Source: Candidatus Omnitrophota bacterium (GTDB taxonomy: Bacteria; Omnitrophota; Gorgyraeia; Duberdicusellales; 4484-171). Taken from it: a stretch of 64,000 bases of DNA. Below the pieces are notes generated by a model. It saw nothing but the letters and a program-made list of their open reading frames with translations. It did not search any database and was not told the origin of the DNA. This document shows, piece after piece, positions 15,673 to 36,900 of this stretch. The stretch covers positions 123,446 to 187,445 of the forward strand of contig PMCS01000030.1 in assembly GCA_003154195.1 (NCBI GenBank), read 5' to 3'. How positions within the stretch are numbered: position 1 is the stretch's first letter; every line of letters starts with the position of its first letter. The position numbers and the translations under genes were made by a program.

Positions 15673-15676
15673 CGCT

Positions 15677-20174: not shown

Positions 20175-20215
20175 TTTCTCGGTTTTTAAGTTTTTTCGTT
20201 TTTAGGTTACCTACC

Positions 20216-21436: not shown

Positions 21437-21603
21437 TACTAAACCACCGACGAATTCGGTGGCAATCCACTCAAAAGTAACGTATCGGCGAATTGGGGAA
21501 TTTGCCATTCTCTAAACGCGGCAACCGCTGATCTGGCTAAGCATTCCAGCGGTAAGGCGGAGGCGGCGCTTCATATCTACTGGCGCGCTACCTAAAAAAA
21601 ACA

Positions 21604-21632
21604 TTTGACTTTTGCCAATGGAATATTATGAT
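21604..21632 (+). promoter_or_regulatory. putative sigma70 promoter (TTGACT-N17-TATGAT) for the pilin gene
   Basis: A -35/-10-like pair about 75 nt upstream of ATG 21709. Confidence 0.3.
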
Positions 21633-21708
21633 TAATAGTATAGAAATCAACAAAAAGTATTTCATTTATACATACCGGAAAGTTAATAAAGAAAAAAGGA
21701 GGATACTT

Positions 21709-22143
21709 ATGAGAAGAAAAAGCTTTACGCTTTTAGAATTGGTAATCGTTCTTATTATTCTCGGCGTTTTAGCTACATTAGGCATTTCGCAATACATGAG
21801 AAGTATTGAGCAATCTCGCGGCGCCGAAGCGCGGTCAATATTGGGCCAGATTCGCACTTCTGTTTTAGGCTATTATATGTCAATAAGTACTCTGACCGGT
21901 ATCGATAATACTGCTGTCGGCATAGGAACAACTAACGATCTTATTCCTTCTTCTTGCCGAGCCAGTCATTATTTTAACTACGCTTTGAGCCTTATAACTT
22001 CTACCACTCTTAGAATTGATGGAACTCGTTGCAGCGCCGGCGGCAAGACGCCCACGGCTAGTGTTGGTATAGGGGGTATTCAGTTGACGGTTGACGCTAA
22101 CGCCGGTACCGATACCTGGTCGATGTCCCCGGCTTATAGGTGA
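21709..22143 (+). CDS. type IV pilin (prepilin-type N-terminal domain), major pilin candidate
   Basis: RBS AAGGAGG, then MRRKSFTLLELVIVLIILGVLA (class III signal peptide with E at +5; Ser at -1). The ORF track start at 21628 lies upstream of the RBS. Confidence 0.7.
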   Translation: MRRKSFTLLELVIVLIILGVLATLGISQYMRSIEQSRGAEARSILGQIRTSVLGYYMSISTLTGIDNTAVGIGTTNDLIPSSCRASHYFNYALSLITSTTLRIDGTRCSAGGKTPTASVGIGGIQLTVDANAGTDTWSMSPAYR

Positions 22144-22291
22144 TACCCGGCGTAATATTTTTGAAATTAATAAGAGGTTTTTATTCCCAGCTTAATCGCT
22201 TTGGTATAACAGGGGTTACTAAGGGTATAGTTTTTTTCAAGGTAATAAGCGATAGGCAGGTATAAATAAGCAGGGGCAAAATTTTGTTTTA

Positions 22292-22336
22292 GGGCGATAG
22301 CTTTTTGAAGAAAAGCTATCGCCCTTTTTGTTTTTT
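22292..22336 (+). terminator. rho-independent-type terminator hairpin, probably bidirectional
   Basis: GGGCGATAGCTTTTT / AAAAGCTATCGCCC stem followed by TTTTTGTTTTTT, between the convergent pilin and minus-strand genes. Confidence 0.55.
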
Positions 22337-22441
22337 CCATAGCCAGGTATATTTTGCCTAAATTAAAATGGGCTTGTAAGTCAAAAGGATTTGTTTTTAT
22401 CCGGGCCCGGTAATAAGAGATTGTTTTTTTGCTTAGCCGGT

Positions 22442-24442
22442 TTATTTTTTCGTTTTTCCGTTTGCTTCGTAAAGTCCGGTAAGAAGCGGGTAAGCCGATA
22501 AAAAATCCGGGTCAAGCTTTATCGCTTTTTCCAGATTTTTTATCGCATCTTCCGGCAAGCCGGTTTTTCTGTATAAAACTGCCAGATTGTAATAAATTCC
22601 CGGCGTTTCATTATTCATCGCGATAGTCTGATTATATTCTTCTATAGCTTTTTTGTAATTGCCCAGCGCGGAATACGCTAGCCCGAGGTTATAGTGCGCC
22701 GGGGCGCTGGGCGTTGTCTGGAGAGATTTTTTCAGATACCGGACAGCTTTCGGGATATCTTGATGATTAAAATAATACATCCCCAGCGCGTTATATACCC
22801 ACTCGTGTTCGTTTTTTAGTTTCGGTTCTATCGCCAGGGTTTTTTTATATAATTTTACCGCTTTTCTAAAATCGCCCGCCATATAATATTCGTCAGCTAA
22901 ATTTTTCCACATCCGCGCGCTTTTCGGCGAGTATCGTAACGTCCGTTTGTAAAAAGCGAGAGGTTCCCGCCAATAATTATTTTGTTGTATCGTGCGGATA
23001 GAATAGAAAATCACCAGCGATAGCGTCAGAAGTATCAACGGCAGTCTTAAATTATTTTTTTTGTATAGAAAGGATAATTTTTCGGCGATAACAAGGAAAA
23101 AACCGATCGAGGGGAGATAGAGCCAGTGTTCAGCCATGTAAGCGTTTATTGGGTAGATATTCGCATAGGGAAGAAGGGTAAGAAAAAACCAGAGAATAGA
23201 AAATGTTACGAGATAATTTTCCTTTCTTTTTTTGAACGCATAAACAAGCAGACCTGAAAAAATAGTTGCGCCGGCAATTATTTTTGCGATATTCAAAGCG
23301 CCGGGGGCTTTGCCGTATTCTACGTGGAGGTTGAACGGCAATATCAATAATTTGAGGTAATCGAGAAGCGCGCAGAAAAAATTAATTGTCCTTACGGTAA
23401 AAGGAGGGGTTTCAACGCCGGCGAGCGGTAATTTTAACAGCGCGTGCCGGGCGATAAGATAAAGGGAGCTTAAAATAAAAAGAAAAAATATTTCTTTTCT
23501 TTTTATTCTCCTTCGCCGAATACCCTGCGGCTTGCCGCAGGGATGAAGGCTCTGCTGCTTGGCTTCGGAGAAATGAAGCTGGATACCCCGCGGCTTGCCG
23601 CGGGGAGAACATTGGTGCTTCATTTTACCGCAGAAAACCGCCGTTGTAAGGCGGCGGATGAATGCGGTAAAATAATCCCGCCGTATTTTGGCGGGATTAT
23701 ACCGGTAAGCCCCCGGCTCTACGAGCCGAAGGGTTCGGAGAGCCACCGGCGTAAGCCGGTGGTAGTTCACTGCCGCGATAAAGGATGGCGCGGTTGTTTT
23801 ACCCGATGGAGAAAGTTTAAGTTGATTGTTTTTTTGATCAAGATAAGCATAGAGAACCAGCAAGGCGGGCACAACGATTACCGACGATTCTTTTGACAAT
23901 AGCGCCGCCAGGTATGAAGCGGTTAACGCGGCGCGCCATCGTAATTCAGGTTCGCGGCAATACTTTATGTAAGACAATAGCGCGAGAAGAATAAATATTG
24001 CCGATAACAAATCGGCCCTGCCGGATATGAAAGAAACTGCTTCCGTGTGAAGAGGGCAGGCGATAAATAATACGCCGGTAATAAACGCGGTCAGATAATC
24101 GCCGGCAATAACAGAAATCAGCCAATATAATAATAGCGCTACGCTTATGTGCAGGAGGATATTGGTTAAACGGTATCCCGCGGGGTTTAATTTCCACAAC
24201 GCGTAGTCGCCGGCGTAGGTTACGATTTCCAGCGGCCGGTAAAAAGCGTTATCCCGGTCTAACCCCCCGGTGATATTAGTTTTGAATACTTCGCCTAAGC
24301 CGTTCCAGCTTCTTATGTGATTGTTGCGGACGACTAAAACCTTGTCGTCCCAGATAAATTTACCGCCCAGCGAGCCGGAATAAATAATAAATCCCAGGGA
24401 GGCGATTAAAAAAAGATGCGCAAAAATATATTTTTTAGCCAT
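22442..24442 (-). CDS. polytopic GT-C-type (TMTC/PMT-like) membrane protein with C-terminal TPR repeats
   Basis: N-terminus GGKFIWDDKVLV... with many TM helices, and at least five C-terminal TPR-like repeats. It contains an atypical GC-rich, hairpin-dense segment (23523-23763). Confidence 0.55.
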   Translation of the reverse strand: MAKKYIFAHLFLIASLGFIIYSGSLGGKFIWDDKVLVVRNNHIRSWNGLGEVFKTNITGGLDRDNAFYRPLEIVTYAGDYALWKLNPAGYRLTNILLHISVALLLYWLISVIAGDYLTAFITGVLFIACPLHTEAVSFISGRADLLSAIFILLALLSYIKYCREPELRWRAALTASYLAALLSKESSVIVVPALLVLYAYLDQKNNQLKLSPSGKTTAPSFIAAVNYHRLTPVALRTLRLVEPGAYRYNPAKIRRDYFTAFIRRLTTAVFCGKMKHQCSPRGKPRGIQLHFSEAKQQSLHPCGKPQGIRRRRIKRKEIFFLFILSSLYLIARHALLKLPLAGVETPPFTVRTINFFCALLDYLKLLILPFNLHVEYGKAPGALNIAKIIAGATIFSGLLVYAFKKRKENYLVTFSILWFFLTLLPYANIYPINAYMAEHWLYLPSIGFFLVIAEKLSFLYKKNNLRLPLILLTLSLVIFYSIRTIQQNNYWREPLAFYKRTLRYSPKSARMWKNLADEYYMAGDFRKAVKLYKKTLAIEPKLKNEHEWVYNALGMYYFNHQDIPKAVRYLKKSLQTTPSAPAHYNLGLAYSALGNYKKAIEEYNQTIAMNNETPGIYYNLAVLYRKTGLPEDAIKNLEKAIKLDPDFLSAYPLLTGLYEANGKTKK
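23523..23763. repeat. cluster of five GC-rich perfect palindromes inside the TPR/GT-C CDS
   Basis: CCCTGCGGCTTGCCGCAGGG, CCCCGCGGCTTGCCGCGGGG, CCGCCGTTGTAAGGCGGCGG, ATCCCGCCGTATTTTGGCGGGAT and CCACCGGCGTAAGCCGGTGG, spaced about 40-60 bp apart. Confidence 0.5.
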
Positions 24443-25124
24443 TTATTTTCCAGCAGATTATTTCTTTGAATGTTCCCCAGATTGTTTTTAAATTAGCTAC
24501 TTTAGATTTACCGCCGGCGCGGGGGAGGTTGACGATGGAGATTTTTTTAAAGCGAAATCCTTGTTGGTAGGCTTTGATCACTAATTCAAAATTGAAGACG
24601 AATCGAGAATTTACGCATATTTTATCAAGAATTTTACGATGGAACAAATAAATCCCTTCGAGTGTGGGAAATTTACCGAAAAGGAGCCGCAATAACAGCC
24701 TTACCCCGGCGGACATGATTTTTCGGAATAATGAAGTATTGCGTTGATGATAAACCGTCGTGACGAAGTCAACGCTGTCGTCAAGCGCTTTCGCGCATTG
24801 GCCAAGCGCGGCAGGTTCGATTTGGCCGTCGGCAGGAAAAAATGATATCCAGCGATAACGCGCCTGCCGGAAACCGTCCGCCAGGCATTTGCCGATACCT
24901 TGTTTGAGCGTATGGGTAATAATAGTTACGTGGGTGTTTTTTTTAGACAGGCGGTCGGCAATTTTTGGCGTTTCATCGGTTGAGCCGTCGTTGATAATAA
25001 TAATTTCGTAGGCGCTGCCGGATATTGTTTGTAATACGGCGTTGACACTTTCCGCAACTTCGCCGAGGGTTTTTTCTTCGTTATAGGCGGGGATAATAAC
25101 CGAAAGATCAATCATAATATTCAA
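24435..25124 (-). CDS. family 2 glycosyltransferase (polyprenyl-phosphate sugar synthase / Dpm1-like)
   Basis: VIIPAYNEE ... INDGSTDET (GT-A DxD region). It overlaps the downstream gene by 8 nt. Confidence 0.8.
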   Translation of the reverse strand: MNIMIDLSVIIPAYNEEKTLGEVAESVNAVLQTISGSAYEIIIINDGSTDETPKIADRLSKKNTHVTIITHTLKQGIGKCLADGFRQARYRWISFFPADGQIEPAALGQCAKALDDSVDFVTTVYHQRNTSLFRKIMSAGVRLLLRLLFGKFPTLEGIYLFHRKILDKICVNSRFVFNFELVIKAYQQGFRFKKISIVNLPRAGGKSKVANLKTIWGTFKEIICWKING

Positions 25125-27058
25125 TTACGAATGGGAAGAACAATTTCGCCGATGGCAACGCTTCCGTCGGGGTTAATCGATTTTTGGCTTATTTTTTGAT
25201 CGAAAGTAAAAAATGTGCCTCTGTCCATCGAAGCTAATGTTAAGAGCAGAGCATATTTTCCTTTCGGTAAGTAACCCGGTATGGTCATAATATAGTAATC
25301 GTTGATAGTTTCGTCTTTTTGCCAGCGCTGGGTAGGATATATTCCATAACAAAGTTGGCGGATAGTTTCGTAGCGGGTTTTGCCGTTCTGGTCGACTAAT
25401 CGGATAAGCATCCCCAGGGTATTGTCATTTGGGTTTAAACAGCGCCAGGTAAAAGAAAATTTAATTGCCGTTGTCCCGCCTGCCTTTACCGGCGAATAAT
25501 TATAATCCTGGAGGCTGATTTTACCGGCAAGCGCGGCTGACGGTGTTTTATCAAATCCGCGTATCTTCGCCGGGATAATTTCGTATAATTTTTTATTGCC
25601 GGGGTGATTTTTTTTAAAAAGGGCGATGCTGTCAATAAAATCTATTACTTGCCAATTATTTCCTTCAAGAAAACGACGCATGTTTAAATCGGAATCAGGT
25701 TTGCGAAAGTATATCGTTGTATAGATATCATTAAAATCAATAAGCGCGTATTCGATATTGTCGGGGATAGCGTAAGGAACCCCGGGCCTCAGTTCGCCCT
25801 GGTAGATATAGTGGAAGGCATATAAGTAGCGCCGGTTCGACAGGTGGCTTAAAAATTCAAAAGTGCTCACAACCGCCGCGTTTTTGGGAATCATGGCAAT
25901 CAAGCGTTGTTTTTGTTTGGCGGTATTTTCTCTCAATAGGAGCACTAATTCTTTATTCATAGAATGGATCGGGCCGTAGATTATGTTGCTGATAATCGGC
26001 AGGATAATAATGTAGGAAAAGATGCGGCGCGGCAGATTGCCGCCGGAAAATTTTAACAAGCCGTATATCGCGGAAATATAAATGAAGGGGGTCATCGCGA
26101 TAGTGTAATGATTGACGATACTATGTTCAGCTATTCGTGTCGAAAGAAGGTGCTGCAGGATATTGAGCGCGCAAATCATTAATTCTTTGAGGGCAAAAAG
26201 AGAAAAGAAACCAGCGGGCATTAATATTTGCAGGATGAAATAACCGTTATCTTCTTGCAATAATGGTTGGAATAATATGGATGGCCGTGTAAGGATATTT
26301 TTAAATATTTCCGGAAAATCTTTTCCTAAATAGGCGTAAAACTGTTCATAGTTTACACCGGTGCGAAAATGCGGCAGAAAAACAAAAATCCCCAGATATA
26401 ACCAGACGAGGCTTATCGTTATGGGCAGTATTGACCAGCGCCACGGTTTTTTATCCAGCGCCGCGTATATTCCTATCATCAGCGTAACCAGGGTCATATC
26501 CAGGCGGCAAGCAATCGTGAGCAGGATACAGGTTATGTACCACCAGAAGCGGTCAGTCTTTAAACAATAAAATGCCCATAACAGCGTCAACCCGGCTAAG
26601 ACTAAATCAAAGTATTCAAAAAGCGCAAGAAACCATAGCGCGGGATATAAAAGATAAGAAACGGCAAACGCGGCGCCTAACCTTGGGGAGTGAGCGTGGC
26701 GGCCGATTAGGAATATCGGCATCGCTCCGGCGGCGAGGATGATTACTTTTATTATCAACATTGCCTGCGGAGAACAAAAAAACAAAGCATAAAGAAGGCT
26801 AAAGGGATAAGCAATAATTTCAATAGCATTACCCCATATCGTGGTATTGTCGATAATCGAAGCGCGGGGGCTGCCATGCAGGATATTCCAATATTTTTGC
26901 AAATGGATGGCAAAATCAAAATCAATATGAGAAAATGAGTTGTATTTCCATAAGCAGATGGCGCTGAAAATCACTGTATAGATCAGCATTCCCAGCAATA
27001 CAATAAAAAAGTATTTTTGTTTTAAAATGTAATTAAACGCTATTTTAAGATTTTTCAT
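25121..27058 (-). CDS. large polytopic membrane protein (DUF2079-like, putative GT-C-type glycosyl transferase)
   Basis: About 12 predicted TM helices plus a C-terminal beta-rich soluble domain. The ORF extends to 27208, but Met 27058 (MKNLKIAF...) is preferred because it leaves a divergent intergenic region. Confidence 0.45.
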   Translation of the reverse strand: MKNLKIAFNYILKQKYFFIVLLGMLIYTVIFSAICLWKYNSFSHIDFDFAIHLQKYWNILHGSPRASIIDNTTIWGNAIEIIAYPFSLLYALFFCSPQAMLIIKVIILAAGAMPIFLIGRHAHSPRLGAAFAVSYLLYPALWFLALFEYFDLVLAGLTLLWAFYCLKTDRFWWYITCILLTIACRLDMTLVTLMIGIYAALDKKPWRWSILPITISLVWLYLGIFVFLPHFRTGVNYEQFYAYLGKDFPEIFKNILTRPSILFQPLLQEDNGYFILQILMPAGFFSLFALKELMICALNILQHLLSTRIAEHSIVNHYTIAMTPFIYISAIYGLLKFSGGNLPRRIFSYIIILPIISNIIYGPIHSMNKELVLLLRENTAKQKQRLIAMIPKNAAVVSTFEFLSHLSNRRYLYAFHYIYQGELRPGVPYAIPDNIEYALIDFNDIYTTIYFRKPDSDLNMRRFLEGNNWQVIDFIDSIALFKKNHPGNKKLYEIIPAKIRGFDKTPSAALAGKISLQDYNYSPVKAGGTTAIKFSFTWRCLNPNDNTLGMLIRLVDQNGKTRYETIRQLCYGIYPTQRWQKDETINDYYIMTIPGYLPKGKYALLLTLASMDRGTFFTFDQKISQKSINPDGSVAIGEIVLPIRN

Positions 27059-27251
27059 ATCATCAACAATACACTGTTTAAAAGGATTAGTCAAGAATTT
27101 TCCGGTAAGAAAATTACGCCGGATAGAGACGGCCAGGTATTCGGCGAAAAGCTTTTTTGTTTTTGTCGTTAGCCTGCCGCTAAACACCTCGCCGGTAATT
27201 TTGCACAAAACAGTTGCAGTTTAAGGTTGGCCGGTGTATTATTATTTCTTG

Positions 27252-28823
27252 ATGAAGAATAACGAGAAAGTAAATATAGGAATGATCGGGTTGGGTTATT
27301 GGGGAAAGAATATTTTACGTAATCTTGTCGAGTTGGGGGCAGTATACGGAGCCTGTGACTCCAACGCCGGTGTTATCGCCGAACGGAAAAAAGATTTTCC
27401 CAATTTGACCTATTTTTCCGATTATAAACAATTGCTGGCCGATGATCGGATGAAGGCGGTTGTTATTGCCGCTCCCGCGGCAGCTCATTATCAATTAGCC
27501 AAGGACGCGCTTTGCCGGGATAAGGATGTTTTTGTGGAGAAGCCTTTAGCGCTTACTTATGAACACGGACGGGAGCTGGCAGATCTGGCGGAACGCAAAG
27601 GAAAGATTTTGATGGTCGGCCATATCCTGAATTACCATCCTGCCTTATTGAAAATGAAAGATTTAATCGCCGGGGGCGATTTAGGGAAGATCCAGTATGT
27701 ATATTCAAATCGTTTGAATATAGGGAAGCTTAGAGTTGAAGAAAATATTCTTTGGAGTTTCGCTCCCCATGATATTTCGGCGATGCTGATGCTTTTAGAA
27801 GAAGAACCGGTAAGGGTGACTTGCTTTGCCGCTGATTATCTTAACGAAAATGTTTACGACGTTACTTTAAGTTCTTTCGAATTTAAAAATAAAGTTAAAG
27901 CTCATATTTTTGTCAGCTGGCTGCACCCCTTTAAAGAACAAAAACTTGTTGTTGTCGGTTCTAAGGCAATGGCGGTTTTTGACGACCTGGCTAAAGAAAA
28001 ACTTATCGTTTACCCTCATACGATCGAGTGGCGGAACGGCAAAATCCCCGTTTCTAACAAAGCGGAAGGTATAAGCGTTGACGTAGAGGAAAAAGAGCCC
28101 TTAAAAGAGGAGCTCAAACATTTTATAGAGTGTGTTGCCAGTCGCAATACCCCCCGGACCGACGCTAAAGAGGCTTTGCGTGTTTTAAAAGTTCTTGAAG
28201 CCGCGGAGGAGTCAATTAGATCATGCTCCGGAGCGCGAACGGCGATGGAAAATAAAAAACATTTTATCCATTCCAGCGCGGTTATCGATGAAAACGTTGA
28301 TATCGGCGAGGGGACGAAAATCTGGCATTTTTCTCATATTCTGAAAAATGTTACTATCGGTAAAAATTGCGTTGTCGGCCAGAATGTGATGATCGGGCCC
28401 GATGCCGTAGTCGGCAGCAATTGCAAAATACAGAACAATGTTTCGCTTTACAAAGGCGTAACGCTTCAGGATGACGTTTTTTGCGGCCCGAGTTGCGTGT
28501 TTACCAACGTTATCAATCCTCGTTCGTTTATCGAACGTAAAGATGAATTTAAAGATACGCTGGTTAAAAAAGGCGCTACCATCGGCGCCAACGCGACGAT
28601 TATCTGCGGTGTTGATATCGGCAGCTACAGCTTGGTCGGCGCGGGGGCGGTGGTTACCAGGGATGTAAGCGATTATGCGCTTGTCGCGGGAGTCCCGGCT
28701 AAGCAAATCGGCTGGGTATGCGTTTGTGGAACGACGTTAAGTTTACGCAAAAATAACGCAAAATGTATCAGGTGCCAAAGGCGTTATAAATTTAATGCCG
28801 GCAGGTTAAGCGAAAAAAAATAA
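27252..28823 (+). CDS. fusion protein: Gfo/Idh/MocA sugar dehydrogenase (WbpB-like) plus left-handed beta-helix N-acetyltransferase (WbpD-like), with a C-terminal Cys4 ribbon
   Basis: N-terminal [13 protein letters not shown] Rossmann domain; C-terminal hexapeptide repeats ([25 protein letters not shown]...) ending in [20 protein letters not shown]. Confidence 0.7.
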
Positions 28824-28841
28824 GCCGGGATATCGGATGCG

Positions 28842-29801
28842 ATGGACAAAATATTTCATAGAGACAGTATTTTTAAAAATACCCGAAAAGCCTGGCAAAA
28901 GTATAAAGATAACCCCAGGGTTTTTAATTTCCCCGAAAGAATTACCGTCGAAATAACCAACCGGTGCAATCTGAAGTGTTTTATGTGCCCCCGTAATTTT
29001 GTCGATATGAAGTTGGGCGATATGCAACCGGCGTTATTTAAAAAAATAATTAATGAGGCGGCGAATTTTTTACCGGTAGCGCTTGTGCCGTTTTTCCGGG
29101 GAGAATCGCTGCTCCACCACGATTTTTTGGAGATGCTTTCCTATGCTAAGGGAAAAGGCATCGCGCCGATCCAGCTTGCGACTAACGCTTATTTTTTAAA
29201 TTCTACCATTGCGAGAAGAATCATCGATCTTGAGATTGATTTTATTTCCTTCAGCGTCGACGCCAACAGTCCGCGGATTTATGAAAAGATCAGGAAGAAC
29301 TCGGATTTTAAAAGAGTATTCTCCAATATATTGGATTTTATCTCGCATAAGAAAAATAAAGGCGCAAAGTTGCCTTTTCTCCAGGTCTCCGCGGTAAAAA
29401 CCGATAAGAACAAGCTTTTTATCTCTGATTTTATAAATTTTTGGCGCGATAAAGTCGATAGGGTGCGAATATACCGGCAGCATTCCCTGAACGGAGAGTT
29501 GGGCCGCGTTAAGGCCGTTTCCGGCAGGAGGAAACCTTGTTTAAAGCTGCTTACCGATATGGTGGTTTATTGGAATGGCGACGTAGCGCTTTGCAACCAT
29601 GATTGGCAGAGAAATGTTTTTATTGGAAATGTCAACAACCGTTCGTTGGAGGATATCTTCGGCGGCGCGGTTTATAACTGTATACGGGGAAAACATCTTA
29701 ATAATACCCTGAAAGGTTTTATGCCGTGTGAATCTTGTTCGCATTGGAAAGTCCACTATCAAAAAAGAACACTCATGGGTGAAGCCTATGAAAAAATTTA
29801 A
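28842..29801 (+). CDS. radical SAM domain protein with a SPASM-like C-terminal Cys cluster
   Basis: CNLKCFMC is a CxxxCxxC motif; the C-terminal region CLKLL...CNHDW...CESCSHW carries additional cysteines. Confidence 0.7.
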   Translation: MDKIFHRDSIFKNTRKAWQKYKDNPRVFNFPERITVEITNRCNLKCFMCPRNFVDMKLGDMQPALFKKIINEAANFLPVALVPFFRGESLLHHDFLEMLSYAKGKGIAPIQLATNAYFLNSTIARRIIDLEIDFISFSVDANSPRIYEKIRKNSDFKRVFSNILDFISHKKNKGAKLPFLQVSAVKTDKNKLFISDFINFWRDKVDRVRIYRQHSLNGELGRVKAVSGRRKPCLKLLTDMVVYWNGDVALCNHDWQRNVFIGNVNNRSLEDIFGGAVYNCIRGKHLNNTLKGFMPCESCSHWKVHYQKRTLMGEAYEKI

Positions 29802-30909
29802 TTTTCCCATTATCAAGCCTTACGCGTGGGGTAAAGAATTGTCTAATGTCGCGAAGGTTTTGGCCAGCGGTTGGTTGACGCAAGGCCCTTATGCCGATAG
29901 ATTAGAAAAGAAGATAAACGCGTATATCGGTTCGCGGTTCTCTTTTCTGGTTAATTCTGCGACCTCAGGCTTGATCGCGGGCCTGGAGGCTTTAGGTTTA
30001 CAAAGCGGCGATGAGGTAATCGTGCCGTCTTTTACTTTTCCCGCCACCGCTAATTCTGTGGTTATCGCCGGAGGAAGACCGGTTTTTTGCGATATCGATT
30101 TGGCGACGTTTAATATTGACGCGGACAAGATTGAAGCTTTGATTACCGGAAAGACGAAAGGGATTATCGCGGTGCATGCCTTCGGGCTTGCGGCGGATAT
30201 GGCCGCGGTTAGAAAAATTGCCGGTAAACACCGTTTATTTATTATTGAGGATGCCGCTTGTTCTTTCGGCGCGGAATACCAGGGAAGGAAAACCGGTTTA
30301 TTTTCCGATGTCGGCGTATTTTCTTTTCACCCCCGTAAAATAATAACCTGCGGCGAAGGAGGGTGTGTTGTTACGAACAATAGAGAGACAGCGAAAAAAA
30401 TTGCTTGCTTGCGCAATCATGGCGAGTACGATAAGAAATTTATAAACCGCGGATATAATTTTCGTTTGTCGGATATCCAGGCGGCGGTTTTGGACGCTCA
30501 GATGGAGAGAGTCGACGCAATCATCGAACGGCGCATTAAACTTTCCCGAAATTACCAAGCTTTGCTTAAGCCTTGGGAGAAAAGAGGAATTTTGAAAGCG
30601 CCCTTATGCCCGCGGGGATACCGGCATATTTATCAATCTTATGTCGTTTTGCTGGCGGATTATGTTGACCGGGATAAAGTAAAGATGTTTTTAAAGGGGA
30701 AAAGCATAGAGACACAGTTCGGCACCTATTGCGTTCCCGCGCTTGATTACTATCTTAAAAATTTTCCTGCGCCGAAGGAGGCATACGCTGACGCGTATTA
30801 CGCGTTTGCCCATTCCCTTGCGCTTCCTTTATATCATACATTGAGCGCCGGCGACCAGGAATATATTATCGGCAGGCTAAACCAGGCGATTAACATGGTT
30901 GCGCGATAA
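29788..30909 (+). CDS. DegT/DnrJ/EryC1/StrS-family PLP-dependent sugar aminotransferase (WbpE-like)
   Basis: Fold-type I aminotransferase motifs for nucleotide-sugar amination. Start taken at MKKFNFPIIKPYAWG. Confidence 0.85.
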   Translation: MKKFNFPIIKPYAWGKELSNVAKVLASGWLTQGPYADRLEKKINAYIGSRFSFLVNSATSGLIAGLEALGLQSGDEVIVPSFTFPATANSVVIAGGRPVFCDIDLATFNIDADKIEALITGKTKGIIAVHAFGLAADMAAVRKIAGKHRLFIIEDAACSFGAEYQGRKTGLFSDVGVFSFHPRKIITCGEGGCVVTNNRETAKKIACLRNHGEYDKKFINRGYNFRLSDIQAAVLDAQMERVDAIIERRIKLSRNYQALLKPWEKRGILKAPLCPRGYRHIYQSYVVLLADYVDRDKVKMFLKGKSIETQFGTYCVPALDYYLKNFPAPKEAYADAYYAFAHSLALPLYHTLSAGDQEYIIGRLNQAINMVAR

Positions 30910-30970
30910 CGCAACGATTATAATACAGAAAAATGCGTAAGTTGTATTTTTTCACTTGGCGGGAGGCGGT

Positions 30971-32863
30971 ATGTGCGCGATAACGGGGATTATAAACCTC
31001 ACGAAAAACCCGGTCGATAGGAAGATACTGTGGGATATGACCGACGCGTTAGCCCATCGCGGCCCGGATGGCCGAGGTATCTATATCGATCATTATCTTG
31101 GTCTGGGCCATCGGCGTTTGGCGATAATTGATTTATCTGATGCGGCATCGCAGCCGATGCGTAGCGCGGATAAAAATTTTGTCGTAAGCTATAACGGCGA
31201 AATATATAATTTTTGCGCGTTACGCAGCCAGCTAAAGCATCGTTACGATTTTCGTTCGCGTTCCGATACGGAAGTAGTGGTTAACGCTTTCGCGGCGTGG
31301 GGCGTTAATGCCCTGAAAAAGTTCAACGGGATGTTCGCGCTGGCGTTGTGGGACAAGCGCAGCAGGACTCTTACCCTGGCGCGGGACAGGTATGGAATAA
31401 AACCGTTGTATTACTGGCGCAACGAAAAAGTTTTTATTTTTGCTTCGGAAATAAAGGCCTTTCTAAAGCATCCGGAATTTAAAGCCGTCGTGGATCGCGA
31501 AGCGCTTCTCGAATATTTTACTTTCCAAAATAATTTTACCGATAAAACATTGTTTAATGGGGTCAAGCTCTTGCCCGCCGGTTCTTTTTTACAGGTTTCC
31601 CTTAAAGAAGGAGCAGCGATCAATGCGCATTGTTATTGGGATTTTTGTTTTAAAGAAGAAAAATCATTGAAAAATAACAATGAGTACTATGAAGAGCTTG
31701 ACCGGTTATTTAAACGGGCGGTAAAACGCCAGCTTGTCGGCGACGTGGAGGTAGGGTCGTTTTTGAGCGGGGGGATCGACTCCGGTTCGATCGTCGCCGC
31801 GGCGAGCCATTATCAACCGGGCTTAAAGACTTTTTGCGTGGGGTTTGACCTTTCTTCGGCATCGGGATTAGAGTTGTCGTTTGACGAAAGGAAAAAAGCC
31901 GAGAGGCTTTCTTATCTTTATCAAACCGAGCATTACGAGATGGTTTTGAAATCCGGGGACATGAAACGCTGTCTTCCCCGATTGATATGGTCACTGGAGG
32001 ACCTTCGCCTGGGGCAGAGTTACCCCAATTTTTACGCCGCTAAAATTGCTTCACGTTTTGTTAAGGTCTGCCTCTCCGGTATCGGCGGAGACGAGTTGTT
32101 CGCGGGTTATCCGTGGCGATATTATCGTACCATACACAGCAAGAACTTTACCCATTATATCGAAGAGTATTATCGATATTGGCAGAGGCTTGTGCCTAAT
32201 AAGATTATCAGGAATTTATTTTCTCCGGTATGGGATAGCGTGAAGCATGTTTGGACCCAGGATATATTCAAGAATGTTTTTCCTCCCCGGATGTCTTTGC
32301 CTCGCACGGCGGAAGACTATATAAACCATTCTTTATATTTTGAAGGGAAGACATTTTTAAACGGCCTTTTTATCGTCGAAGATAAGCTGAGTATGGCCAA
32401 TAGTATGGAAGTGCGCGTTCCCTTTTTTGATAACGATCTTGTCGATTTTGCCATGAAGATTCCCGTGAAACTAAAATTAAAAAACATAAAAAAGGTTTTA
32501 AGCATTGATGAAGATGAGCTTGCGAAAAGGGAAAAATATTTTGCAAGGATGCGCGATGGGAAAATTATATTGCGAAAAGTCTTCGGCAAATACGTTGACG
32601 ACAGTATAATCAAACAGTATAAGCAGGGGTTCAGCGGCCCGGATGCGAGCTGGTTCAGGGGGGAGAGTATCGAATATGTTAAGACGCTATTGTTAAGCCG
32701 GAAGGCGAATATCTATGATTATTTTGATTACCGGACGGTTCAGTCGTTGATTGCGGAACATCTCGGCGGTAAATTTAACCGGCGTCTTTTTATCTGGTCT
32801 CTTTTGTGCTTCGAATGGTGGCTTAAGATTTTTATATCGGGCAAAGCGCAGGAAAAACTTTAA
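30971..32863 (+). CDS. asparagine synthase (glutamine-hydrolysing) family amidotransferase (WbpS-like)
   Basis: The N-terminal nucleophile Cys follows Met (MCAITGI) and a PP-loop SGGIDSG is present. 631 aa. Confidence 0.85.
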   Translation: MCAITGIINLTKNPVDRKILWDMTDALAHRGPDGRGIYIDHYLGLGHRRLAIIDLSDAASQPMRSADKNFVVSYNGEIYNFCALRSQLKHRYDFRSRSDTEVVVNAFAAWGVNALKKFNGMFALALWDKRSRTLTLARDRYGIKPLYYWRNEKVFIFASEIKAFLKHPEFKAVVDREALLEYFTFQNNFTDKTLFNGVKLLPAGSFLQVSLKEGAAINAHCYWDFCFKEEKSLKNNNEYYEELDRLFKRAVKRQLVGDVEVGSFLSGGIDSGSIVAAASHYQPGLKTFCVGFDLSSASGLELSFDERKKAERLSYLYQTEHYEMVLKSGDMKRCLPRLIWSLEDLRLGQSYPNFYAAKIASRFVKVCLSGIGGDELFAGYPWRYYRTIHSKNFTHYIEEYYRYWQRLVPNKIIRNLFSPVWDSVKHVWTQDIFKNVFPPRMSLPRTAEDYINHSLYFEGKTFLNGLFIVEDKLSMANSMEVRVPFFDNDLVDFAMKIPVKLKLKNIKKVLSIDEDELAKREKYFARMRDGKIILRKVFGKYVDDSIIKQYKQGFSGPDASWFRGESIEYVKTLLLSRKANIYDYFDYRTVQSLIAEHLGGKFNRRLFIWSLLCFEWWLKIFISGKAQEKL

Positions 32864-32878
32864 CCGGAGAGGTTTCTT

Positions 32879-33454
32879 ATGCGAAGACAAAATAAAATTT
32901 CGCACAAACAGATTATTGCCGCGCATCATTTATTGCGCGATGATATCTTAAGAAAATGGAAAAGGGTTTTGCCGCTTAACGAGGCGTTTGGCGATAGATG
33001 GGAAAAGGCTCGTTATCTGGGTTTTGGAAAAAATACGAGTATCTATGATTCCAGTTTTATTTTCGGCGATGTTAAAGTGGGCGAGAATACCTGGATCGGC
33101 CCGTTTACGCTTTTGGACGGGAGCGCCGGGCTATCGATAGGAAGTTTTTGTTCGGTATCGGCGGGGGTGCAGATATATACCCATGACAGTGTCGCGTGGG
33201 CTATCTCCGGCGGGAAAGCTAAATATGCGTATGCCCCGGTGGCGATCGGCGATTGTTCTTATATCGGGCCAAACGCCGTGATATCTAAAGGCGTGGTTAT
33301 CGGCAATCATTGTATTGTGGGTGCCGGCAGCTTTGTGAATAAGAATATACCATCGTTTTCTGCCGCTTTTGGTATCCCTGTCAAGGTGGTCGGCAGGGTG
33401 AAGATCGATAGGAACGGCGCGGTAACGATAGTCTATAAGAAAAATAAATCATAG
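32879..33454 (+). CDS. hexapeptide-repeat acetyltransferase (WbbJ/LacA-like)
   Basis: Left-handed beta-helix repeats VGENTWIGPFTLLDGSAGLSIGSFCSVSAGVQI. Confidence 0.7.
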   Translation: MRRQNKISHKQIIAAHHLLRDDILRKWKRVLPLNEAFGDRWEKARYLGFGKNTSIYDSSFIFGDVKVGENTWIGPFTLLDGSAGLSIGSFCSVSAGVQIYTHDSVAWAISGGKAKYAYAPVAIGDCSYIGPNAVISKGVVIGNHCIVGAGSFVNKNIPSFSAAFGIPVKVVGRVKIDRNGAVTIVYKKNKS

Positions 33455-33462
33455 GAGATATC

Positions 33463-33873
33463 ATGAGCCATCTTGATACCCGGAAAAGTTTTACGCTTAT
33501 TGAGCTTAGTATTGTTCTTGTTATTTTGGGCGTGTTGGCTACTCTTTCGCTTAATTATGCAGGGATTATGCACGAAAAGACGCTTGGCCGGGAAGCGGCG
33601 TCGCAGTTGAAACTTATCCAGTCCGCGTTAGAAGCTTTGCGCGTCGAAACCAATGCCGACAGCTATACGCCTTGCGGGCCTACCGCGGATTGCAACGCTA
33701 AGCTTCGTATTATACTGCCCGGTAACGGTAATTGGATTTATTCGGTTATGGCAGCAGGAAACGGCGCCGGCGCTACTTATACGGCTACGGCAACCCGGCA
33801 GGGAATAGCATTATGCACCTATACCATCAATCAAGCGCAGACAGATCCGGTGAATAATGGTTGCCAGCCGTAG
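33463..33873 (+). CDS. type IV pilin-like protein (prepilin-type N-terminal domain)
   Basis: RBS AGGAGA, then MSHLDTRKSFTLIELSIVLVILGVLATL. 136 aa with a Cys pair near the C-terminus. Confidence 0.6.
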   Translation: MSHLDTRKSFTLIELSIVLVILGVLATLSLNYAGIMHEKTLGREAASQLKLIQSALEALRVETNADSYTPCGPTADCNAKLRIILPGNGNWIYSVMAAGNGAGATYTATATRQGIALCTYTINQAQTDPVNNGCQP

Positions 33874-33914
33874 CGTCGGGCGATTGGCAGAAAGATTGTG
33901 CTTTGGCCGAATTT

Positions 33915-35348
33915 ATGAATAAAACCAGTCGTTATGATTTAATCAGCCTGAGCGTGATTGCGCTCGTCAGTATTTTTTCGCTCTGCCGGTTTAATTATCT
34001 CCCCCAATTTATTGACGGTTATTATCATTTATCCGTGGCTAACGCTTTTTTGAAATCCGGCGGCTGGGTAGGCTGGTCCTGGTGGGATTTTGCGCCGTTA
34101 GGCCGGCCGCATCTATATCCGCCTTTATATCATTTTATCTTAGCGGGCTTAATCAAATCCGGGATCAGCGGTATCAACGCCGTGCGGCTTACCGAAGTTT
34201 CAATTGTTCCTTTATTTTTTATAAACGTATGGTATGTTTTTCGGCGGCTCACCGGCGTTAAATTCGCTTTTTTTACTACCTTTATCTTAAGCGGATTTTT
34301 CCCTTTTTATTCCTCGGTTTCCGCCAATGTCCCGGCCAGCCTTGCCTTAATTTTTGGGGTTTTTACCTGGTTTTTTACGGCGCGACGACAAACCCGCCGC
34401 GCCGTGTTGATGCTAACTCTGTGTTTTTATACTCATGCGGCAATACCCTGGCTATTTTTTATTTCTCTTGTTTTTGCCGCGGTCTTCGATCAAGATTATC
34501 GAAAAATTATTTTAAAAATAATTATCCTCAGCCTTATTTTTTATTCGCCCCTCCTTGATCATCAAATTAAATACCTGAGTTATCTTAACATAAAGGTATG
34601 GGCTGAAGCGTCTTATACTTATGTTAATATTTTTGTCATGCTTTTCGGATTATTCTCGTTATTCAAAAATTTACGAAATAACACCCTGGCTTACCGATTT
34701 TTTTTAGGATATGTTTTAGCCGGGGCGGTTATCTTTGCGAAATATCCCTATCGTTTTTTCAGCGCGCAAGGTTTTATCGGTCCGGCGCTTATCAGCGCGT
34801 GGCTGCTTGAGCAGGCGGTGAAGCCGTTGAAAGGTTTAGGTTTACATTTATTTGTCGTTGCCGTAAGCGTTTATTTGTTTTTATTCAGTTCTATACTCAG
34901 TATTAATAGGGGAGACCCTAAGGTTGAGCTGATGGCGTCAACTTGCTATAAATTTATCAACGGCAGTATGCTTGATGTCGGTCAATATCAATCATCATTT
35001 TATCCCGGGTATTATAATGATGTTATCGCAGTGATTAAGAAGAATACTTCCCCCGATGACATAATTTCTTCCAACGTTATGGTTATTTCTCAGATTTTTT
35101 CAAGTCTTTGCAATCGGCCTTGCGCCAATTCCATGCTTATGGAGACGCGTCCGAAAAATATTTCCCATGGTTATGAGAATTCGAAAATTATCGTATGGCT
35201 TAAAGATGTGGCTGGAAGCAAAGGTGATTTTAAACATACGGGATGGGAAAAAATATTAGAAAATGACATTTTATATGTTTTTTTGAATCATAATTGCCGC
35301 GTGAAGGCGGTTATCCTGCCGGCTAAGATAAGATTTATCCGCGTATAG
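33915..35348 (+). CDS. polytopic membrane protein immediately downstream of the pilin; candidate pilin glycosyl/oligosaccharyl-transferase-like enzyme
   Basis: At least ten predicted TM helices plus a C-terminal soluble domain. The ORF track TTG at 33861 was replaced by ATG 33915. The functional call is an inference from synteny. Confidence 0.4.
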   Translation: MNKTSRYDLISLSVIALVSIFSLCRFNYLPQFIDGYYHLSVANAFLKSGGWVGWSWWDFAPLGRPHLYPPLYHFILAGLIKSGISGINAVRLTEVSIVPLFFINVWYVFRRLTGVKFAFFTTFILSGFFPFYSSVSANVPASLALIFGVFTWFFTARRQTRRAVLMLTLCFYTHAAIPWLFFISLVFAAVFDQDYRKIILKIIILSLIFYSPLLDHQIKYLSYLNIKVWAEASYTYVNIFVMLFGLFSLFKNLRNNTLAYRFFLGYVLAGAVIFAKYPYRFFSAQGFIGPALISAWLLEQAVKPLKGLGLHLFVVAVSVYLFLFSSILSINRGDPKVELMASTCYKFINGSMLDVGQYQSSFYPGYYNDVIAVIKKNTSPDDIISSNVMVISQIFSSLCNRPCANSMLMETRPKNISHGYENSKIIVWLKDVAGSKGDFKHTGWEKILENDILYVFLNHNCRVKAVILPAKIRFIRV

Positions 35349-35416
35349 GAAGAATTTGTCGCTATGTTTGTCGCCGGGGCGGTAGTATGGTATAATTTAG
35401 ATAGGGGATAGGGGAT

Positions 35417-35863
35417 ATGTTAACCAAAAAAAGCCCATTTTTTAGAGCATTCTTCCGGTTGAGGAAGGCTACCGGTTTCATCGAACTTATTGTGGCGGCG
35501 CTTATTTTATCCGCTGTGGTGGCCGGGCTTCTGTCTTCTTTTATCTCGGTGCGCAGTTACATCACCCATTCCAACAAACGGCTGGTATCGGCTAATCTGG
35601 GAAGAAGTATTTTGAGCCGGCTTGGCGGATGTGTCAGCGAGGCTTCATGGAACGTTAGCGGCACCGCGCTCTACGCGCCGCCGGGCCAAGCGTGGCAACC
35701 CCATACTGCCGGCGATGTGGCGGTGGGTTTAGGGCCGATTGATAATATAAATTACGATCCTGCTCCTGCCGGTTCTACCGGTTATCGGGTGCGGCGGGTC
35801 GAGACGCCGGCGGGCGACGAACGTTATCGCGAAGTCGAGGTAAATATTACCTATCCCGACTAA
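35417..35863 (+). CDS. minor pilin / pseudopilin (prepilin-type N-terminal cleavage/methylation domain)
   Basis: The G|FIELIVAALILSAVVAG motif. Confidence 0.6.
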   Translation: MLTKKSPFFRAFFRLRKATGFIELIVAALILSAVVAGLLSSFISVRSYITHSNKRLVSANLGRSILSRLGGCVSEASWNVSGTALYAPPGQAWQPHTAGDVAVGLGPIDNINYDPAPAGSTGYRVRRVETPAGDERYREVEVNITYPD

Positions 35864-35935
35864 TCAAAATAATGCTTACGCATTATTTTGATTAGTCGTA
35901 AACGAAAACGTAAAAACAAAACCTGAAAAAATTCT

Positions 35936-36622
35936 ATGGATTATCGGATTCTCGGTTTTCTTTCAAAATATTCCCAAAAAACAAAACGGCTGTATTTTTT
36001 TCCTACCTGCCGGCAGTCCGGTCGGAACCGAAAAAATGCGTCATGCTTGCCTGACGGTAGTCAGGAATTTTTCCGGTTTATAAAATCCGTTACGTTAATC
36101 GAATTGATAATTACGATGACTCTTTTCAGCGTGATCATTATTGCCGCCGGCTCTTTTGAGATCACCGCTAACCGGCTTTTTCTTTCTTCGGAAAGAAAAG
36201 CGGCGGTGCTTAATGAGATGACTTATGTTTTAGAGCATATCAATAAAAGTTCCCTCCGGGTGCATAGTATGGGCGGCGGTAGCGGCGTTCAAGTTACGCC
36301 CAATACGAGGATAGCGTTTAGGTTGGATAATAATCCGCCGACGCCGCTTGTCTTTACCGACGATATATGGGTAGCCTATCAATTTGATACTGCGACGAGT
36401 AATATAAGTTATTGTCCCAACTGGAATACAGCAGGGGCAGGGTCATGCACCGGAGCTTGGGAAGTATTAACTTCAAGATTAAATAGTGTGACTATTGCCA
36501 CTACTCCTTACGTCAGTTTGCAGCTTACGGGCGTGTACAATCCGGCGATAGCGAACGATTCCAGCATTAATCCTAACGTAACTGTTCAGACTACTATTTA
36601 TTGTCCCGGTTACTCCTCATAG
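35936..36622 (+). CDS. pilin-like protein with an unusually long leader; the true start is uncertain
   Basis: A KSVTLIELIITMTLFSVIIIAAGS prepilin-like hydrophobic segment follows a 46-aa N-terminal extension. A TTG or other internal start is possible. Confidence 0.4.
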   Translation: MDYRILGFLSKYSQKTKRLYFFPTCRQSGRNRKNASCLPDGSQEFFRFIKSVTLIELIITMTLFSVIIIAAGSFEITANRLFLSSERKAAVLNEMTYVLEHINKSSLRVHSMGGGSGVQVTPNTRIAFRLDNNPPTPLVFTDDIWVAYQFDTATSNISYCPNWNTAGAGSCTGAWEVLTSRLNSVTIATTPYVSLQLTGVYNPAIANDSSINPNVTVQTTIYCPGYSS

Positions 36623-36653
36623 CTTTTATTTTTTGCTGCGCAAAAAATAAAAG
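36623..36653. repeat. AT-rich palindrome, family A (CTTTTATTTTTTGCTGCGCAAAAAATAAAAG)
   Basis: Perfect inverted repeat. The same core occurs at 39659-39683, 46241-46265, 40053-40080, 52713-52740 and 47497-47525. Confidence 0.6.
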
Positions 36654-36868
36654 ATACCCTCTAACCGGCAAAGCGCTTTAGGCCAATCAGCCAGCCGCCG
36701 AATTGCCTCATAATTAGTATTGCCGCATCAAACACCAGAAGGTTTCAGCGCTTTACCAATACGGGATTATTATTGTTTTATTCTCTTTTAAGCGATAAGC
36801 CCTCCTGGGTAACGCTTATTTATTAGGCAATACTGCGGCGATGTGTTATCTTGCGGTGCCCGAAAAAT

Positions 36869-36877
36869 ATGATATAA
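36869..36877 (+). promoter_or_regulatory. extended -10 element TGATATAAT upstream of the OMP gene
   Basis: Sequence match about 25 nt upstream of ATG 36901. Confidence 0.3.
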
Positions 36878-36900
36878 TCCATATTTATATGGGCGGATCA

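Follow-up and report, generated by a model that had tools for sequence, protein, structure and literature searches.

The DNA analyzed in this study is a 64,000-nucleotide stretch (hereafter, the window) of contig PMCS01000030.1, from a metagenome-assembled genome (MAG) of an uncultured member of the Omnitrophota (Candidatus Omnitrophica) that originated in peat or wetland. A type IV pilus/type II secretion system (T2SS)-class gene cluster occupies 13.7–37.6 kb of the window, and its pilin genes are interrupted by an island of genes for sugar modification, lipid-linked sugar transfer and putative membrane-embedded glycosyltransferases, which is the subject of this paper. In an initial annotation, the island had been described as a 15-kb block bracketed by pilin genes and dedicated to the glycosylation of pilins or other proteins. 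We analyzed it through profile scans, using Pfam, NCBIfam and sequence matches in the PDB, and through loci collected from genomes and metagenomes (labeled with an L and a number). The Pfam scans took in all open reading frames (ORFs) of at least 120 aa at 21.4–40.2 kb and, outside this interval, the larger ones of the window. All of the genes that had been listed were recovered at, or near, their assigned positions with significant support from hidden Markov models. Pilin genes do lie on both sides of the block; however, what had been taken as bracketing proved to be the insertion of the block into a full pilus machinery cluster, the first gene of which begins at 13707. The same gene arrangement was found in six other assemblies from different samples, and 13 contigs, from metagenomes of peat, fen and other origin, encode a residue-identical copy of the island's radical SAM protein with the same neighboring genes.

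The machinery genes are all on the plus strand. They encode a PilM/PilN-like fusion (13707–15188; PilM_2 E = 6.8e-10), two small proteins (15193–16024), a secretin (16056–17645; Secretin E = 1.9e-39), the GspE/PilB ATPase (18042–19751; T2SSE E = 1.6e-136), a four-helix-bundle protein of the 23S_rRNA_IVP family (19800–20174; E = 3.7e-23) and the GspF/PilC platform protein (20216–21436; T2SSF E = 1.7e-55). The pilin array opens with pilin 1 (21709–22143, plus strand; class III signal peptide KS/FTLLELV, N_methyl E = 1.5e-5), ahead of which is a promoter-like site at 21605–21632. Pilin 1 is probably a major pilin or a pseudopilin. Its N-terminus matches GspG/PilA, it is 42–44% identical to the first pilin of the related loci L010 and L012, and its Ser/Thr content of 27%, versus 13–21% in its homologues, constitutes weak evidence for glycosylation. 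Pilin 2 (33463–33873, plus strand; KS/FTLIELS, N_methyl E = 4.2e-6) shares 34–40% identity with the pilin located ahead of the minor pilins of L010–L012. Both pilins have the class III pattern (G/S-F/V-T-L-x-E with a hydrophobic N-terminal helix) and score above the N_methyl cut-off. Neither contains an N-x-S/T sequon, and N-glycosylation was rejected as a reading on that ground. Two minor-pilin-like genes on the plus strand complete the array: gene A (35417–35863), which has an atypical GFIELIV motif and is homologous to the SVTLIE-type minor pilins of the relatives, and gene B (35936–36622), with a weak N_methyl match (E = 0.0046). Homologues of both are present in the same positions and order in the L010–L012 clusters. 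The last conserved gene of the pilus cluster, orf246 (36841–37581, plus strand), encodes a protein with a signal peptide and no Pfam match that is 54% identical to the product of its positional counterpart in L010.

The three related clusters were obtained by scanning the genome collection with GspF. All are from Omnitrophota, L010 (CP070797.1) being a complete chromosome, and their GspF and GspE proteins are 57–64% and 73–74% identical to those of the window, respectively. The order of the machinery genes at 13707–21436 is the same in all three, at 41–74% identity. When all window proteins were placed by tblastn, the relatives were seen to have, in order, pilMN, the two small genes, the secretin gene, gspE, gspF, two to three pilin-1-like genes, pilin 2 and both minor pilins. 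Beyond the minor pilins, orf246 is found in L010 only, the FAD oxidase gene in L012 only, and the phosphoribosyltransferase and M48 peptidase genes in both; in L011, tblastn gave no matches past the minor pilins. By the same search, the pilus clusters of L010–L012 lack all of the island's glycosyltransferase and sugar genes, as well as the IVP gene. In the window, these genes form a block of ~11.3 kb between pilin 1 and pilin 2, plus a further membrane protein gene that separates pilin 2 from the minor pilins. The synteny comparison called for in the initial annotation thus yielded three relatives that share the pilus cluster and are without the island, which makes the island an insertion specific to this lineage, within the pilin array of a pilus machinery cluster. 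A mobile-element origin found no support, with no integrase, transposase or flanking tRNA gene; the tRNA genes of the window are at 0.7, 43.0 and 46.2 kb, and the GC content of the island (42–45%) is like that of its flanks.

Comparison of the related clusters revealed some additional variations. The IVP gene between gspE and gspF is missing from that site in all three relatives and represents a second lineage-specific insertion. In L011, which is without the island, a 511-aa polytopic protein resembling glycosyltransferases of the C fold (GT-C) is encoded on the minus strand (13476–15011) and abuts the minor pilins. Its sequence could be aligned, DD motif included, with the N-terminal GT-C portion of the first membrane protein family described below (hhalign probability 61%, E = 8e-5), and it is a possible second case of a pilin-linked GT-C. 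The gene beside it (L011, 15249–17993) encodes a 914-aa protein that has long (SDSDTG)n repeats and no Pfam match.

The island includes genes for three polytopic membrane proteins, homologues of which are named almost only from Omnitrophota MAGs. The first (22442–24442, minus strand), here PMT/TPR, has an architecture of the TfpW/TMTC type, in which an N-terminal PMT-like membrane domain (PMT, 24.8 bits; cut-off, 22.7) is joined to C-terminal tetratricopeptide repeats (TPRs; residues ~483–652, TPR_1 E = 5.5e-29). It belongs to a very large paralogous Omnitrophota family with several copies per contig, and a WDD motif after the first transmembrane (TM) helix is present in it and in all eight aligned homologues. 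The second (25121–27208, minus strand) is a DUF2079 protein (E = 5e-39) with a likely start at M51 (27058) and, at its C-terminus, a beta-sandwich resembling carbohydrate-binding domains. Its residue D48 is invariant in 35 DUF2079 homologues; a metagenome scan with the single DUF2079 protein returned no relatives. The third, a 495-aa protein (mem495; 33861–35348, plus strand), has no Pfam model, and a few members of its family weakly match PMT_2 or DUF6541. In 55 homologues of mem495, residues D52, H56 (within FIDGYYH), R82 and Y86-P87-P88 (within GRPHLYPPLYH) are invariant.

Structural models of mem495 and the DUF2079 protein matched solved GT-C enzymes, including ArnT and Pmt, and one or more acidic residues are conserved in the first extracytoplasmic loop of all three proteins, the topology of this loop being taken from the models. 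Whether these proteins would show GT-C or ligase signatures had been posed as a check on the initial annotation; all three carry the GT-C signature, and the fold of mem495 and the DUF2079 protein is assigned from the models. No protein of the region matched Wzy_C at E ≤ 0.01, which excludes an O-oligosaccharyltransferase of the PglL/TfpO type. Likewise, mem495 has no STT3 Pfam match and no WWDYG motif in its C-terminal domain, its sole WWD being in the first loop (residues ~72–74), and its fold likeness to oligosaccharyltransferases (OSTs) is of the general GT-C kind.

Between the PMT/TPR and DUF2079 genes is a gene for a 229-aa family 2 glycosyltransferase (GT2) of the polyprenyl-phosphate sugar synthase type (24435–25124, minus strand; Glycos_transf_2 E = 5e-29). 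The initial assignment of this protein held, as its closest relatives are ArnC, dolichyl-phosphate mannose synthase (DPMS) and GtrB. Its best NCBIfam match was ArnC (1.1e-17, far below the equivalog cut-off) and its best PDB matches were ArnC (8e-15), the archaeal DPMS 5mlz (1.8e-12) and GtrB (4e-8). The C-terminal TM helices of ArnC and GtrB are lacking: the protein has 226–229 aa, and its alignments to ArnC end at ~170–220 of chains of 316–363 aa. In size it resembles the TM-less enzymes of the Dpm1/PpgS type.

The DUF2079, GT2 and PMT/TPR genes form a minus-strand operon, and the plus-strand operon that diverges from it encodes five proteins. The first (27234–28823) is a single-ORF fusion, identified with Pfam, of a GFO_IDH_MocA-type, NAD-dependent sugar 3-dehydrogenase to an N-acetyltransferase of the WlbB/WbpD type, which has a left-handed beta-helix (LbH) domain. 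This had been considered a fusion of WbpB and WbpD. The acetyltransferase half (residues 345–519) bears this out, matching WlbB (3mqg, the UDP-GlcNAc3NA N-acetyltransferase) at E = 3.5e-60 and 207 bits, but the dehydrogenase half is not detectably WbpB-like. Its best PDB matches were 3c1a and 7bvj, no chain named WbpB or WlbA was among its 60 best PDB matches, and it scored 165.7 bits against the NCBIfam model for the archaeal UDP-N-acetylglucosamine (UDP-GlcNAc) 3-dehydrogenase (cut-off, 450). It resembles the GnnA and archaeal UDP-GlcNAc 3-dehydrogenase types more than WbpB/WlbA. The second protein is a radical SAM/SPASM enzyme (28842–29801; Radical_SAM E = 6.8e-15, SPASM E = 8.5e-11) and is presumed to tailor the sugar. 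It had no NCBIfam match above cut-off and no close characterized relative; the best PDB match, BtrN (1e-7), covered the N-terminus only, around the cluster motif. The third is a DegT-family pyridoxal phosphate-dependent sugar aminotransferase (29728–30909; DegT_DnrJ_EryC1 E = 1.6e-102), whose likely start at 29788 overlaps the radical SAM gene. It scored 216 bits to unnamed aminotransferases, 192 to perosamine synthase, 186 to ArnB and 162 to WbpE, so that nothing singles out WbpE, the earlier designation, over ArnB or perosamine synthases.

The fourth protein is a glutamine-dependent AsnB-type amidotransferase of the WbpS-like class (30956–32863; Asn_synthase E = 1e-82, GATase_7 E = 1e-44). 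It scored 425 bits to TIGR01536, the generic asparagine synthase model, and 424 bits to TIGR03108 (eps_aminotran_1), below the cut-off of 817 for the latter, a family that includes WbpS and WbqG (PMC7468200). Its best PDB match was 7ylz (1.5e-63), a hydroxyamidotransferase. The fifth is a second acetyltransferase with hexapeptide repeats (32879–33454; Hexapep E = 5.9e-13), which resembles the NeuD/PglB/VioB and WbbJ families.

A uronic acid or uronamide had been proposed as the product of this operon. The five-enzyme Wbp pathway (WbpA, WbpB, WbpE, WbpD and WbpI) begins with the 6-dehydrogenase WbpA (PMC10622841). No uronic-acid-forming enzyme was found among the scanned ORFs, and the proposal is unsupported because it needs a 6-dehydrogenase of the WbpA type, of which there was none among them. 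Neither a UDP-sugar 6-dehydrogenase (UDPG_MGDP_dh), which may lie elsewhere in the genome, nor a WbpI-type 2-epimerase (Epimerase_2) was present in the scanned window ORFs, and the product is therefore read as a UDP-2,3-diacetamido-2,3-dideoxy-hexose, an assignment that the predicted enzyme functions support. The scanned ORFs also held no flippase, no Wzx/Wzy, no WaaL, no lipid A genes and no initiating phosphoglycosyltransferase.

We propose that in the cytoplasm UDP-GlcNAc would be oxidized at C3 by the GFO domain, the 3-keto product aminated by the DegT protein, and the resulting amino sugar N-acetylated by the fused WlbB-like domain, giving UDP-2,3-diacetamido-2,3-dideoxy-hexose. Further tailoring of the sugar would fall to the radical SAM/SPASM protein, the AsnB-like enzyme and the second acetyltransferase. 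The ArnC/DPMS-like GT2 would then move it onto polyprenyl (undecaprenyl) phosphate, and the lipid-linked monosaccharide would be flipped across the membrane. In the periplasm, the PMT/TPR protein, the pilin-adjacent mem495, or both, would attach the sugar to Ser/Thr residues of pilin. A role for the DUF2079 enzyme in extending or decorating the glycan is suggested by its C-terminal domain, which looks carbohydrate-binding. The general course of events, from nucleotide sugar to polyprenyl-phosphate sugar, flipping and transfer by a GT-C, is one that we consider likely. The exact sugar, the donor lipid, the acceptor and the division of labor among the three GT-Cs are inferred from the gene content. 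The initial annotation is thus supported in part: its gene content and lipid-linked GT-C logic stand, its uronamide pathway is unsupported and its dedication to pilins is weakened.

That pilins are the target of the predicted GT-C glycosylation is, in our estimation, credible at a little under an even chance. The layout of the genes favors it in several ways. Two separate pieces with GT-C genes, the 11.3-kb block and mem495, were both inserted within the pilin array. The last stop codon of the sugar operon is 9 bp from the start of pilin 2, so that the sugar operon runs into this gene; mem495 and then the minor pilins come next on that strand, no gap exceeding 73 bp. Of the enzyme genes, the one immediately behind a pilin is mem495, whose product lacks TPRs. 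Its ORF (33861–35348) overlaps pilin 2; the polytopic protein does follow pilin 2, and its likely start is ATG 33915, because its homologues begin MxKKLTRFDL, and this start leaves a 41-bp gap and no overlap. The recurrence of mem495 homologues after pilins elsewhere and the precedent of TfpW, both discussed below, also favor pilins.

Several observations weigh against glycosylation of pilins by this route. The missing 6-dehydrogenase, 2-epimerase and flippase have been mentioned, as has the DUF2079 domain, the modeled likeness of which to carbohydrate-binding domains suggests an acceptor that is a glycan rather than a protein. The PMT/TPR gene converges on pilin 1, and the 300-bp gap between them holds a hairpin with a 16-bp stem and T-runs (22291–22325) that is probably a bidirectional terminator. 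The insertion point is an operon boundary past the pilin 1 terminator, a site that could simply tolerate insertions. It is gene position that ties these enzymes to pilins, and homologous modules elsewhere are mostly in other surroundings, so that the dedication to pilins in the initial annotation is weakened. In L023, acpS and a carbohydrate kinase gene are followed by genes for a DUF2079 protein (39% identity), GFO, Hexapep, DegT, Hexapep, an epimerase, DegT and a GT2, with the dehydrogenase (54%) and acetyltransferase (51%) encoded by separate adjacent genes and not fused. The same flank (acpS, carbohydrate kinase) is found in L024 with a different sugar cassette beside DUF2079. In L106, the order is fabD, DUF2079, GT2, a PMT_2 GT-C, two radical SAM genes, a methyltransferase and two GT2 genes, the DUF2079-GT2-PMT order being that of the window. 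The locus of the closest PMT/TPR homologue, L105, has two successive PMT/TPR genes between secG and opp.

The surroundings of mem495 homologues were surveyed in 80 loci (L025–L104) that were retrieved in a metagenome scan with a mem495 alignment, 66 of which were informative. The upstream neighbor was truA in 52 loci, a pilin or pseudopilin gene or array in 3 and another gene in 11, with the remaining 14 being too short to tell. The preponderance of truA (52/66, versus 3/66 for pilins) also counts against a pilin target, as do the four closest mem495 homologues examined (P0002, P0003, P0014 and P0038); pilin linkage was sought in these, and all were linked to truA instead. The three homologues directly after pilin or pseudopilin genes (L029, L052 and L062) are 30–54% identical to mem495. 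Against a background of ~2 pilin-like ORFs in ~800 genes of the same loci, 3/66 corresponds to a binomial P of 6e-4, or of 0.012 if L029 and L052 are counted as one lineage, indicating that the enrichment of mem495 after pilins is real but modest. The pilin-linked copies are scattered in a neighbor-joining tree, which points to independent associations.

The truA-linked gene order was itself of note. In L007, L008, L009, L107 and the 52 loci among L025–L104, asd and truA are followed by a GT-C gene of the mem495 family (often overlapping truA), and then by genes for a 160-aa lipoprotein and an MBL-fold hydrolase, xerC, a poly(A) polymerase gene and rbfA. The conservation of the asd-truA-mem495 block indicates that this unannotated GT-C gene is a core, housekeeping-linked gene of the phylum. 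The GT-C families co-cluster with the GT2 and sugar cassette in L022, L023, L070, L101 and L106, and from this recurrence we conclude that the three GT-C families, a small GT2 and a variable sugar cassette are a predicted functional set in Omnitrophota. In L022 (6593–13588), a mem495-like gene, two tandem DUF2079 genes and a PMT/TPR gene were found together between parB and ndk, with two pilin-like genes and a secretin gene 3–8 kb downstream of the GT-C group.

These data also fit a different explanation, in which the same chemistry serves a general envelope-glycan module whose acceptors are lipopolysaccharide (LPS)/lipid A, another envelope glycan, or many periplasmic or surface proteins, and the position of the island is incidental. 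It would have landed, or been kept, where the pilus cluster offers a permissive boundary between operons. We regard this as a serious possibility, though a tentative one. It accounts for the housekeeping neighbors of the homologous modules (L023, L024, L105 and L106), for the phylum-wide presence of mem495 in the asd-truA block and for an insertion point just past a strong terminator. It is also in keeping with the carbohydrate-binding appearance of the DUF2079 beta-sandwich and with the variation between genomes in the sugar cassette beside DUF2079, which recalls O-antigen-type modification loci. It is less easily reconciled with the location of two separate GT-C pieces within one pilin array, with the 9-bp gap between the sugar operon and pilin 2, with the occurrence of mem495 homologues after pilins in three more loci, and with the lack of Wzx/Wzy, WaaL or lipid A genes among the scanned ORFs.

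An additional question is the state of the PMT/TPR gene. Alignment with seven homologues revealed an in-frame insert of ~112 aa (residues ~201–312; 23507–23842, minus strand) that is missing from all seven, which carry a short basic loop at that site. The DNA of the insert is a chain of short GC-rich hairpins, such as CCCCGCGGCAAGCCGCGGGG and CCCTGCGGCAAGCCGCAGGG, and the hairpin motif CCGCGGCAAGCCGCGG occurs in it twice. One hairpin, at 23657–23638, is terminator-like and is on the coding strand. Beyond the PMT/TPR stop codon, a 57-aa minus-strand ORF (22167–22340), which overlaps the terminator hairpin and is called in L003, has a TPR-like sequence (…AIALKQNFAPAYLYLPIAYYLEKNY…KAIKLG) and may be the remnant of a longer TPR tail. 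The insert was considered as a copy of a repeat in the window, and this was rejected as no long repeat joins 23.5–23.8 kb to other sites; at 37.69–38.16 kb there are hairpins similar in style, with no alignable copy.

Based on the hairpin insert, the internal terminator-like hairpin and the possible TPR remnant, the PMT/TPR enzyme may be impaired, which would be a further point against the proposed pathway, although one that can coexist with any of the acceptors considered here. Taken to its conclusion, this would make the island a partly decayed one, with PMT/TPR inactivated by the hairpin array and by 3' truncation, the minus-strand operon a relic, and only the sugar operon and mem495 still working. 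One assembly, in which only a 485-aa product (P0093) is called, agrees with such decay. We nevertheless consider it improbable. The reading frame is open through the insert, and the 666-aa gene call recurs in L003, which is from another assembly and a different sample. The insert is basic and takes the place of a short, probably cytoplasmic basic loop, so that the topology of the protein could be preserved. The catalytic WDD and the conserved motifs downstream of it are intact, and GT2 and DUF2079 have no defects. Least probable of all is that mem495 is an STT3/AglB/PglB-like OST that moves a preassembled glycan linked to undecaprenyl diphosphate (Und-PP) en bloc to the pilins, the other genes supplying only one sugar, since its place directly after a pilin gene, as for tfpO, is set against the lack among the scanned window ORFs of an initiating phosphoglycosyltransferase, a Wzx/PglK flippase and cytoplasmic GT-A/GT-B assembly enzymes (the sole transferase is the Dpm1/ArnC-type GT2), the lack in mem495 of an STT3 match or a C-terminal WWDYG, and the lack of sequons in pilins 1 and 2.

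Returning to pilins as the target, we can envisage a broader and more speculative extension, which at present we think unlikely. This is that mem495, DUF2079 and PMT/TPR proteins conduct a phylum-wide glycosylation of type IV filament subunits in Omnitrophota from polyprenyl-phosphate monosaccharide donors, as a third class beside PglL/TfpO and TfpW. Under such a scheme, mem495, normally beside truA, could have been drawn repeatedly into pilin operons, and exchangeable sugar cassettes, like that of the window, could vary the surface of the pilus, for instance as a defense against pilus-specific phages or in the recognition of hosts or prey. Glycosylation of pilins in P. aeruginosa guards against pilus-specific phages (bioRxiv 10.1101/150227). 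If pilins are the acceptor in the window, pilin glycosylation by lipid-phosphate sugar and GT-C would extend beyond Pseudomonas, a function would be gained for DUF2079, for the bacterial TPR-PMT proteins and for a family without a Pfam model, all of them poorly understood GT-Cs, and variation of the pilus surface would have a concrete example. Attachment of the ultra-small, possibly host-dependent Omnitrophota to surfaces or hosts is thought to depend centrally on type IV filaments, and we know of no work on the surface modification of these filaments. Our literature search likewise returned nothing relevant on DUF2079 or on pilus glycosylation in Omnitrophota. Even without a pilin target, the combination of DUF2079, GT2 and a variable sugar cassette is a conserved, relocatable module of the phylum that is useful for annotation.

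During our studies on the island, we noted other features of the window. Two tandem genes with PilZ domains are present at 1102–1805, and two 48-nt direct repeats, 80 nt apart, lie upstream of the lipoyl synthase gene (11852–11979). A 40-nt hairpin element occurs in two copies, one after gspF (21432–21471) and one after the gene at 46520–47470 (47466–47505). The intergenic region at 37690–38160, upstream of the gene for the FAD-linked oxidase, is dense in short GC-rich hairpins, which lengthen the mechanical ORF at 37844–39625 by ~100 codons at its 5' end. Repeats rich in GGTAAGG/GGTTAGGG are found at 50409–50531, where there is a local hairpin (50414–50531), and at 57510–57564. These form an inverted pair, 7 kb apart, flanking fusA and genes for a hydrolase, a glycerol kinase-like protein and a DAO-family oxidoreductase. 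A 1534-aa ORF at 59076–63680 contains many diverged repeat copies spaced at multiples of ~189 nt; within it, segments of 73–76 nt are exactly duplicated at 61651/62038 and 61714/62215, and the AT skew is strong.

Comparison of the island with known systems revealed similarities to, and departures from, each. Like the PglL/TfpO (PilO) systems, it places a membrane enzyme gene immediately behind a pilin gene, with pilins proposed as the substrate; unlike them, its enzymes have a GT-C fold and no Wzy_C domain, and a monosaccharide on a lipid monophosphate presumably serves as donor in place of an Und-PP-oligosaccharide. Two-component lipid-phosphate sugar systems include ArnC/ArnT, which modifies lipid A with 4-amino-4-deoxy-arabinose (Ara4N), GtrA/GtrB/GtrV in O-antigen glucosylation, Ppm1/Pmt in actinobacterial protein O-mannosylation, and PpgS/Rv3779. 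As in these systems, a small GT2 in the island would load polyprenyl phosphate and a GT-C would transfer the sugar on the outer side of the membrane. The island differs from them in that no flippase gene of the GtrA/ArnEF type is in the locus, the GT2 is without the C-terminal TM helices of ArnC and GtrB, and three GT-Cs share one GT2.

The sugar operon follows the logic of a 3-dehydrogenase, a 3-aminotransferase and a WlbB/WbpD-type N-acetyltransferase that is seen in the Wbp/Wlb pathway to UDP-2,3-diacetamido-2,3-dideoxy-mannuronic acid (UDP-ManNAc3NAcA; PMC10622841). Its AsnB-type amidotransferase gene, beside wbp-like genes, is placed as wbpS is in the Wbp/Vim/WbpS system for the linking sugar of P. 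gingivalis (PMC7468200). It departs from the Wbp/Wlb pathway in having no WbpA 6-dehydrogenase or WbpI 2-epimerase in the scanned window ORFs, in the fusion of a GnnA/archaeal-like dehydrogenase to the acetyltransferase, and in the addition of the radical SAM/SPASM enzyme and the second acetyltransferase.

The sole precedent in our literature search that joins a GT-C, TPRs and pilin glycosylation is TfpW of P. aeruginosa Pa5196/PA7, a GT-C with C-terminal periplasmic TPRs and a DDX motif in its first periplasmic loop (bioRxiv 10.1101/2020.04.19.049825). The tfpW gene is directly after pilA, the donor is a lipid-phosphate sugar, D-arabinofuranose (D-Araf), and sugar genes cluster with pilA-tfpW in some species (bioRxiv 10.1101/2020.04.19.049825). 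The island has three GT-Cs instead of one, and its TPR enzyme converges on pilin 1, whereas tfpW follows pilA. Its sugar would be a putative 2,3-diacetamido hexose derivative in place of D-Araf, with the donor made by an ArnC/DPMS-type GT2 and not by the DprE1/E2 route. The likeness, compared by described architecture, lies in PMT/TPR, which combines a GT-C, C-terminal TPRs and a WDD motif, and in the overall arrangement, with a GT-C gene near a pilin gene and a putative polyprenyl-phosphate monosaccharide donor supplied by dedicated genes.

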